NCBI GenBank assembly: GCA_047611865.1
Contig: JBLFWS010000001.1
Coordinates: forward strand, 12,408-76,407
From: Chlamydiales bacterium
Lineage (GTDB): Bacteria; Chlamydiota; Chlamydiia; Chlamydiales; JBDQID01
Direction: 5' to 3'
DNA: 64,000 nt
The position numbers and the translations under genes were made by a program. This document shows, piece by piece, positions 61,442-62,668 of the stretch. The first letter of the stretch is position 1. Each line of letters begins with the position of its first letter. A model generated the notes under the pieces. The model saw nothing but the letters and a program-made list of their open reading frames with translations, was not told the origin of the DNA and ran no database searches.

Positions 61442-61801
61442 TTAGGATCCACGACTTATTTGTTCAAAGCTCTTAACGAGTTGTCCACGGATCTGCATCA
61501 TCAAATCAAAGGCAGATTTTGCCTCATCCATAGCCATAACGACTTCATGAATATTTTCTGTTTCTCCAGCAACAAATCTCTGAATCTGTGCATCAGAATC
61601 ATGTTGTAAAGTATTCACTTCATCAAGATACCGGGAGAGAACATCCTTAAAAGTATGAGTATTCTCTAGGTTCGCCGATTCTTGAGGTTGAGGAACATTT
61701 ATCTGAAGATCAGCACCTTTAACAAAAATTGAAGGATTTTGAAGTTTACTAGCTCGAACAGGTAAGCCTGAATTAACTTCGAGAAAACTTGAATCAACCA
61801 T
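61442..61801 (-). CDS. fliE: Flagellar hook-basal body complex protein FliE
   Basis: FKDVLSRYLDEVNTLQHDSDAQIQRFVAGE..NIHEVVMAMDEAKSAFDLMMQIRGQLVKSFEQI follows the FliE consensus. Confidence 0.8.
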   Translation of the reverse strand: MVDSSFLEVNSGLPVRASKLQNPSIFVKGADLQINVPQPQESANLENTHTFKDVLSRYLDEVNTLQHDSDAQIQRFVAGETENIHEVVMAMDEAKSAFDLMMQIRGQLVKSFEQISRGS

Positions 61802-61815
61802 TATATACCTCTAAA

Positions 61816-62298
61816 TTAGCCTCTGCCGATGGCAAGAGCTTGGCGGTTCATTTTATAGGACACGGCCATCACAGTTAAGTTAGCCTCGTAGGAAGCTGCC
61901 GCTATACGCAGGTCAGCCATTTCCTGAGAACCACTAACACTGGGATAATACACATAACCCGCATCAACACTACCGGCCTTTCGAGCCGCCGGGTGAGATG
62001 GAGCATATATTTTTTTTACACTGTTCTTTAGTTCTATCATTTTTTTTACACGAACACCGTTAATAACGTCACCATTAACCCTGTTTTCTCTGAATTTTTC
62101 AGATAAGACCTTGGCAAAGAGGGGAACTTGTCTTGCATAGGGGACAAAATTGCCGCTTTTATCACGGACTCCCGTATCTAATGTGTGAGAGTTTGCAATG
62201 TTATTCGATATTGCATTCATCCACTGACGACTAGACTTAAGACCGGACGCGGCAACCCTTGAAGCTCTAAAGACATCGTTAATGTTTGAAGGATACAT
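61816..62298 (-). CDS. flgC: Flagellar basal-body rod protein FlgC
   Basis: The N-terminal rod motif SGLKSSRQWMNAISNNIANSHT, then PYARQVPLF, and the C-terminal EMADLRIAAASYEANLTVM are all FlgC-typical. Confidence 0.85.
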   Translation of the reverse strand: MYPSNINDVFRASRVAASGLKSSRQWMNAISNNIANSHTLDTGVRDKSGNFVPYARQVPLFAKVLSEKFRENRVNGDVINGVRVKKMIELKNSVKKIYAPSHPAARKAGSVDAGYVYYPSVSGSQEMADLRIAAASYEANLTVMAVSYKMNRQALAIGRG

Positions 62299-62299
62299 A

Positions 62300-62668
62300 T
62301 TAAGAGCCTCCCTTAATTGCGGTATTCAGCATTTTTACTTTCTTCGTATAAAGATCTGTGTAGATCTGGTAAAACATGGCATTTTCTTGCATGGAGGCCA
62401 TTTCCATATCAATATCAACATTATTACCGTTATTACGAACAGCTGTATTAGTTGGACGATCAACAAAGCCCCTAATGTTGCGATAATCAGAAGCTTGGCC
62501 CTTAGCCATTGCCTCACGCAAGGCTTTGGAAAACTTAAATTCTCGTCTGCGATAATTAGGAGTGTTGACGTTAGCTATGTTTTGGGCAGACACCTTATGC
62601 TTTGCTGAATGTAAATCTAGCATCTTCCCAAGGAGGGTAAAATTTTTGTTACCTATCTTTGTAAGCAT
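62300..62668 (-). CDS. flgB: Flagellar basal-body rod protein FlgB
   Basis: LLGKMLDLHSAKHKVSAQNIANVNTPNYRRREFKF is the FlgB N-terminal motif. I chose the ATG at 62668 (AGGAG 7 nt upstream), because the track's longer ORF (to 62755) would run through the sigma-54 promoter. Confidence 0.8.
   Translation of the reverse strand: MLTKIGNKNFTLLGKMLDLHSAKHKVSAQNIANVNTPNYRRREFKFSKALREAMAKGQASDYRNIRGFVDRPTNTAVRNNGNNVDIDMEMASMQENAMFYQIYTDLYTKKVKMLNTAIKGGS

Follow-up and report, generated by a model that had tools for sequence, protein, structure and literature searches.

Do chlamydiae that carry flagellar rod genes make use of them? Chlamydiae are the textbook non-motile intracellular bacteria, and views of their ancestor and of the way they reach hosts shifted in 2017, when flagellar genes were discovered in marine lineages. 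The question is raised here by a 64-kb stretch of contig JBLFWS010000001.1 from a Chlamydiales bacterium (the window, meaning all 64,000 nucleotides [nt] that were analyzed), in which three adjacent minus-strand genes resemble flgB, flgC, and fliE. The original prediction, made from the letters alone, proposed that the organism either builds a flagellum or a flagellum-derived basal structure or keeps a remnant operon. We conclude that the trio is probably the proximal-rod operon of a chlamydial flagellum, in an uncultured chlamydia close to the marine single-cell genome SCGC AG-110-M15. The flagellar genes are a lineage trait described since 2017, and those of the window are already annotated; what is newly added is a conserved predicted sigma-54 promoter, a conserved stand-alone layout, and evidence of strong constraint. 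The window contributes a well-assembled representative (a 110-kb contig) of the flagellated lineage and leaves the overall picture unchanged.

Identity and origin of the rod genes

The genes and the ribosome-binding signal of the first are as follows; lengths are in amino acids (aa).

62300..62668, minus strand: flgB, proximal rod protein, 122 aa, ATG start at 62668 (TIGR01396 and PDB FlgB chains)
61816..62298, minus strand: flgC, proximal rod protein, 160 aa (TIGR01395 and PDB FlgC chains)
61442..61801, minus strand: fliE, adaptor from the export gate and the membrane/supramembrane (MS) ring to the rod, 119 aa (PF02049, TIGR00205, and PDB FliE chains)
62676..62680, minus strand: Shine-Dalgarno-like AGGAG, 7 nt ahead of the flgB ATG, read from the sequence

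FlgB matched TIGR01396 with 83.2 bits (cutoff, 59.05) across positions 2 to 131 of the 131 in this NCBIfam profile, and FliE matched both PF02049 (70.2 bits; cutoff, 22.4) and TIGR00205 (65 bits; cutoff, 30). FlgC scored above the cutoff of Pfam Flg_bb_rod, PF00460 (23.4 against 20.7 bits), and its runner-up family in the profile search was a further FlgC model. When all PDB sequences were searched, the matched basal-body entries were 12du, 8z5s, and 7bin, and each protein retrieved its namesakes: FlgB found 12du_R (E = 5.9e-12), 7bin_Q (4.5e-8), and 8z5s_b (1.1e-6), all of them FlgB; the three matches of FlgC were all FlgC (best E, 1.2e-15 over residues 9 to 160); and FliE found FliE chains only (best E, 1.9e-6). 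The rod motifs pointed out in the original prediction were present as well (AQNIANVNTPNY in FlgB and SNNIANSHT in FlgC). The proposed names are thus borne out by NCBIfam and Pfam profiles and by PDB namesakes, and comparison at the sequence level confirms the trio as FlgB, FlgC, and FliE at the coordinates given above.

Compared with the Salmonella basal body (7bin and 7cgo, among others) and with 12du and 8z5s, the window proteins belong to the same families and align over their full length with the solved chains, although their identity to every one of these chains is low. FlgC is longer than in Salmonella (160 versus 134 aa), with the extra residues around positions 60 to 85, and is nearer to the chain of 12du (152 aa). 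FlgB is shorter (122 versus 138 aa), while FliE has a longer N terminus (119 versus 104 aa in total).

The source contig carries genes typical of chlamydiae (CT_584-like, UPF0137, and a 722-aa GreA). The exact RecA and the three exact rod proteins are deposited at NCBI under "MAG: Chlamydiales bacterium" (MAG, metagenome-assembled genome), where the trio is annotated as FlgB, FlgC, and FliE (MFT4551450-52, MFT5317947-49, and MGK0180753-55). On such gene and protein matches, the source genome is assigned to the Chlamydiota. That the sequence derives from a metagenome, and that the FlgC family is common across flagellated bacteria, would allow for non-chlamydial genes, brought in by an assembly or binning artefact or by recent transfer from a flagellated bacterium. 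This explanation is highly improbable, and both its versions are poorly supported. The trio lies within one contig amid the chlamydia-typical genes, the G+C content around it (0.39 to 0.40) matches that of the window, its exact sequences recur on a 110-kb chlamydial contig that JGI, NCBI, and Logan data yielded in separate assemblies, and its gene order is identical in independent JGI, NCBI single-cell amplified genome (SAG), ENA, and Logan assemblies. About 70 protein clusters are 55 to 94% identical to the window FlgC, and the named ones are all chlamydial (AG-110-M15 at 78%, a Waddliaceae MAG, and a Chlamydiales MAG); outside the chlamydiae, identity falls abruptly to about 40%, with the best relatives at no more than 42%.

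Phylogeny, which the original prediction had proposed as a check, points the same way. In a neighbor-joining tree of the concatenated trio (348 columns; 33 taxa; Planctomycetota and one Lachnospiraceae as the only outgroups), the chlamydial sequences formed one group in 100/100 bootstraps, and the window grouped with AG-110-M15 and the comparison loci L005, L038, and L040, also in 100/100. Divergence of the rod proteins between lineages was similar to that of flanking housekeeping genes. Taken together, these comparisons indicate that the trio was inherited within the chlamydiae and is not a recent acquisition.

AG-110-M15 is the closest named relative (RecA is 79% identical, close to the value for FlgC). 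Its contig FLYO01000008.1 carries ung-flgB-flgC-fliE-hexapeptide transferase-ispA...recA in the order seen in the window, and the block common to both comprises TatC-TatA-TPR, an 84-aa open reading frame (ORF), ung, flgB, flgC, fliE, the hexapeptide transferase gene, ispA, recA, and a MORN-repeat gene. Given this shared block, the window is a close relative of a genome in which the trait has already been described. Among the marine chlamydial SAGs and MAGs it belongs to the same fully supported clade, while differing from the SAGs as a species-level genome. Collingro et al. (2017) reported flagellar genes in three marine SAGs (SCGC AG-110-M15, AB-751-O23, and AG-110-P3), 20 of them in AG-110-M15, and a complete apparatus once the SAGs were pooled; hook, filament, motor, and chemotaxis genes were reported in SAGs including AG-110-M15, and an ancient chlamydial flagellum was argued for (PMC5604735). 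Flagellar sets were later found in CC-IV/Sororchlamydiaceae (bioRxiv 10.1101/577767, PMC9666466), and PMC8242063 terms the sets of "several marine SAGs and MAGs" "semicomplete to complete." Later work reconstructed a flagellated chlamydial ancestor, and flagellar genes have been lost from most chlamydial lineages (PMC5604735, PMC5826181).

The background offered with the original prediction (flagellum-specific proteins, a few export paralogues in classical Chlamydiaceae, and full sets in some marine or environmental lineages) agrees with PMC5604735, PMC8242063, and bioRxiv 10.1101/577767. The flagellar paralogues of Chlamydiaceae (FlhA, FliI, and FliF homologues) are likewise flagellum derived and come from the same phylum. 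However, they are cytoplasmic or inner-membrane export parts only and are thought to serve the injectisome (PMC5604735), whereas the window genes encode axial rod proteins with no counterpart in Chlamydiaceae.

Operon layout and the predicted sigma-54 promoter

The spacer from the flgB stop to the flgC start is a single base, and fliE follows the flgC stop after 14 nt; the trio makes up a single, tightly coupled transcription unit. The same gene order recurs in about 24 other chlamydial loci (8 MAGs from GTDB, L038 to L041, and 12 short metagenomic contigs). The metagenome scan with FlgC, which gave short contigs only (1.1 to 4.3 kb), added six upstream regions for promoter comparison. The order flgB-flgC-fliE is also found in Planctomycetota loci; in Salmonella, fliE is a separate unit beside fliF, and flgBC head the long flgB-L operon.

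Upstream of the operon lies the following element.

62703..62718, minus strand: predicted sigma-54 (-24/-12) promoter, TGGCATCAGTCTTGCT, 50 nt ahead of the ATG of flgB

The element fits the consensus TGGCAC-N5-TTGCW, with GG and GC in exact register, and is the sole match to TGGCAYN5TTGCW in the window, where 0.10 would be expected by chance. Of the 12 independent long chlamydial loci, 10 contain a single strict match each, invariably just ahead of flgB, and the other two (L009 and L010) have one-mismatch variants of the box at the same place. A scan of these loci on both strands, 463,328 positions in all, gave 10 perfect matches, all of them the sites upstream of flgB. When every locus with 40 nt or more of sequence ahead of flgB was considered, short metagenomic contigs included, TGGCA[CT]-N5-TTGC[AT] or a one-mismatch variant lay 42 to 83 nt ahead of the flgB start in 18/18. 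In the alignment of the boxes, TGGCA and GC are invariant and the 5-nt spacer is free to vary. This strong comparative evidence suggests that the trio is a sigma-54-dependent operon.

The predicted promoter also bears on the start of flgB. Public JGI and NCBI models begin FlgB at a TTG, giving 151 aa and an ORF that reaches 62755, and the extension (62669..62755, minus strand) holds both the sigma-54 box and the Shine-Dalgarno sequence. Because the box sits within the longer model, the 122-aa ATG start is the better call, and the public start is probably 29 codons too early. FlgB of the relatives is called at 122 aa.

Transcription from a sigma-54 promoter should need RpoN and an enhancer-binding ATPase. 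A gene for neither was found in the window, and no activator gene adjoins the chlamydial trio. In L010 and L012, two-component genes close to the trio were considered as FlrB/FlrC-type flagellar regulators and rejected; by Pfam, their products are two kinases (a histidine kinase and a hybrid kinase) and a receiver-adenylate cyclase, with no sigma-54 activator domain. Two Stutzerimonas loci (L021, 9532..9547; L026, 9532..9547) and two Phycisphaerales-type loci (L017, 9892..9907; L020, 9298..9313) also carry the strict motif just upstream of flgB, and in Phycisphaerales loci a sigma-54 activator gene (L029, 8002..9453) and a histidine kinase gene (L030, 7083..8006) lie upstream of flgB. Sigma-54 control of flgB may be common to the Planctomycetes-Verrucomicrobia-Chlamydiae (PVC) lineages.

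The polar flagellates Pseudomonas, Vibrio, Campylobacter, and Helicobacter have sigma-54-dependent rod and hook operons, and chlamydiae encode RpoN and the activator CtcC. The box in the window is of the same -24 GG/-12 GC type as those of the polar-flagellate operons and of the Chlamydia trachomatis sigma-54 regulon. In C. trachomatis, late genes are driven by sigma-54 and CtcC as cells convert into the infectious form (Soules et al. 2020, PMC7482065). Rod genes are lacking in this species. Sigma-54 control in the window organism could tie rod synthesis to a particular developmental stage. More specifically, the proximal-rod operon might be wired into the CtcB/CtcC-RpoN developmental switch, with flagellar assembly confined to one stage, most plausibly the extracellular/infectious form; we put this forward tentatively and find it rather doubtful. 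The promoter itself is well supported, whereas linking it to CtcC and to a developmental stage is speculative. If the link is true, flagellar assembly is a stage-specific event in the chlamydial life cycle, and the conserved promoter provides a handle for asking when in that cycle the flagellum is made.

The surroundings of the operon in the window are as follows.

62814..63563, minus strand: ung, uracil-DNA glycosylase, the upstream neighbor, given as context only (NF003589, 314.6 bits)
60358..61056: hexapeptide-repeat sugar-nucleotide transferase gene, downstream of fliE (profile search)
61377..61398, minus strand: terminator-like hairpin, CTTAGCCAT-CTTT-ATGGCTAGG, followed by a T-rich tail (terminator scan)

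ung is directly upstream of flgB in 7/8 of the GTDB chlamydial loci, in L038, L039, and L040, and in four short metagenomic contigs. On the 3' side of fliE, the hexapeptide transferase gene is shared by the window, L005, L038, L039, and L040, and an aldehyde dehydrogenase (L010), an EamA transporter (L008), or a UPF0242 gene (L006) is found elsewhere. The original prediction had remarked that fliF and fliG do not follow fliE. This holds in the window, where the hexapeptide transferase gene comes next, and since neither gene follows fliE in any chlamydial locus examined, the missing continuation is a conserved chlamydial layout and no peculiarity of this genome. Across the chlamydial lineages possessing it, the trio is a stand-alone module amid housekeeping genes.

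The terminator-like hairpin of the original prediction is present, with nine pairs, four of them G-C, and moderate stability (region minimum free energy, -18.4 kcal/mol; z = -2.1). It is only modest, however, and is not conserved as a strong terminator: among the relatives, only L005 shows a comparably strong hairpin after fliE, which makes the hairpin weak evidence for the operon end. That end is better backed by the 385-nt gap and the changing downstream neighbors.

Published papers on chlamydial flagella do not mention the stand-alone layout beside ung or the sigma-54 promoter, their supplements lying largely outside this search. The term "sigma-54" is absent from these papers, including PMC5604735, PMC9666466, PMC8242063, and bioRxiv 10.1101/577767, and "promoter" and "rpoN" are absent from the text of Collingro 2017 (PMC5604735).

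One of the chlamydial records has an unexpected name. L007 (CAMCWV010000012.1) is titled "Waddlia chondrophila WSU 86-1044 isolate MH-21oct19-270" yet bears the trio; to our knowledge, the cultured Waddlia chondrophila strain has not been reported to have flagellar rod genes. The organism name on this record looks wrong.

A flagellum, a reduced structure, or a remnant

Selection on the rod genes, another check proposed with the original prediction, was measured by the Nei-Gojobori method between the window and L038, whose rod proteins are about 93% identical. The ratios of nonsynonymous to synonymous substitution rates (dN/dS) were as follows.

FlgB: 0.036
FlgC: 0.030
FliE: 0.029
Ung: 0.050
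RecA: 0.059
IspA: 0.061
MORN-repeat protein: 0.065
Hexapeptide transferase: 0.084
5-Formyltetrahydrofolate (5-FTHF) cyclo-ligase: 0.10

The rod genes, at about 0.03, fall below recA (0.059), and the six neighboring housekeeping genes span 0.05 to 0.10; the ratios are approximate, as the dS of the rod genes (about 1.0 to 1.1) is near saturation for this method, while the order of the genes is clear. Selection on the trio is strongly purifying rather than relaxed. Constraint on the rod genes ranks with the strongest on the contig, which argues that they are in real use.

The original prediction had allowed for a remnant operon, that is, a now functionless, decaying leftover of an ancestral flagellar cluster. 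Such a leftover would be in keeping with the loss of flagellar genes from most chlamydial lineages noted above and with the lack of the fliF-fliG continuation that is common in other bacteria. We reject this option and give it almost no weight, as the dN/dS values of 0.029 to 0.036 lie under that of recA on the same contig. Moreover, the frames are intact and translationally coupled in about 25 lineages at 55 to 94% identity, and the promoter is kept in 18/18 loci.

In the proposed mechanism, transcription would start at the sigma-54 promoter just downstream of ung. FliE would be exported first, via the flagellar type III gate, and would assemble on FliP/FliR within the MS ring; FlgB and then FlgC would stack on FliE as the base of the drive shaft, from which the distal rod, hook, and filament would grow. 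This sequence follows established flagellar structure, known from the Salmonella basal body and from FliE literature such as PMC8546590 and PMC12403130, in which FliE is the first axial protein to be exported, assembling on FliP/FliR, with FlgB and FlgC then building the proximal rod. The remaining flagellar genes would lie elsewhere in the genome, and a working flagellum would be built.

Several points weigh against this proposal, the near-saturated dS among them. FlgB falls just short of the cutoff of PF00460 (19.3 against 20.7 bits), with the motif visible by eye, and FlgC scores 94.6 bits against TIGR01395, slightly less than the trusted cutoff of 102.1 (E = 5.7e-27; positions 5 to 137 of 137); the latter score fits a divergent clade. 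The promoter is predicted from sequence, and a chlamydial flagellum has never been reported (PMC5604735). A Pfam scan of essentially all ORFs of at least 120 aa found no further flagellar gene in the window, and no flagellar gene other than the trio lies within 10 kb in the chlamydial loci with long flanks. FliF/G/M/N, FliPQR, FlhA/B, FlgE/F/G/K/L, FliC, and MotAB were all absent from the window and about 8.7 kb beyond it. When every ORF of 25 non-chlamydial flagellar loci was compared by BLASTP with 13 chlamydial loci and with the window, the matches beyond the trio were limited to two-component domains of a generic kind, an aldehyde dehydrogenase, and, in L010, a short ORF lying antisense within fliE. 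A complete apparatus in the window organism therefore rests on the published inventory of its relative.

The isolation of the trio might instead mean that the rod proteins are part of a reduced, non-motile basal structure derived from the flagellum, a secretion or anchoring device and not a swimming flagellum. Buchnera keeps basal-body genes without flagellin and has filament-less basal bodies. Marine chlamydial sets described as "semicomplete to complete" and the lack of any observed chlamydial flagellum would suit such a structure too, and strong purifying selection is compatible with it and with a flagellum alike. However, the SAGs that include AG-110-M15 contain hook, filament, motor, and chemotaxis genes, and because these SAGs are only 41 to 43% complete, incomplete sets are to be expected (PMC5604735, Table 1). 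A reduced structure is thus unlikely, although a more serious candidate than a remnant. The flagellum of the original prediction is favored by inference, from the syntenic block shared with AG-110-M15 and the 20 flagellar genes published for that genome.

Other features of the window

An 84-aa ORF without a Pfam match (63657..63911, plus strand) lies upstream of ung and divergent from it, as it does in L001 to L004 and L039 to L041. In the window it is followed by a tRNA-Pro (GGG) gene (63920..63996, plus strand), and an Rfam scan of the window at gathering thresholds returned one tRNA and nothing else. On the other side of the operon, three genes at 53935..57464 (plus strand) encode a 541-aa protein with a weak T2SS-L match, a 206-aa protein that matches no family, and a 427-aa MORN-repeat protein. 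The equivalent set in L039 lies at 15637..19113, and the set adjoins recA in AG-110-M15 and in the nearest relatives, L001 to L003 and L038; the AG-110-M15 counterpart of its first gene has a faint PilM_2 match.

Four tandem paralogues of about 810 aa (10413..20142, minus strand) weakly resemble sulfotransferases at the N terminus and carry a Glyco_trans_1_2 domain at the C terminus (2/4 scanned), and a fifth, shorter Glyco_trans_1_2 gene lies nearby (3982..5163, minus strand); such a run of large glycosyltransferase-like genes is unusual. A twelve-gene sugar-nucleotide/polysaccharide cluster follows (20244..32923, minus strand). Among its members are a zinc alcohol dehydrogenase, a choline-kinase-like gene, two methyltransferases, and a SIS-domain gene, together with a transketolase in split form, epimerases of the RmlD-like and GDP-mannose-dehydratase-like kinds, and a PfkB-cytidylyltransferase fusion that recalls heptose synthesis.

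A respiratory cluster (38099..48811, minus strand) encodes a FixO-like subunit, CcoN/COX1, cytochrome b, and a Rieske protein, along with a flavin/Fe-S oxidoreductase of 610 aa. A further member is a 1367-aa multi-haem cytochrome c with cbb3-type, FixO-like, and MtrC-like segments, which looks unusual for a chlamydia. Finally, a candidate secreted effector is encoded at 34991..36748 (minus strand), a 585-aa protein that bears ankyrin repeats at its C terminus and weakly matches Peptidase_C58 (YopT-like).

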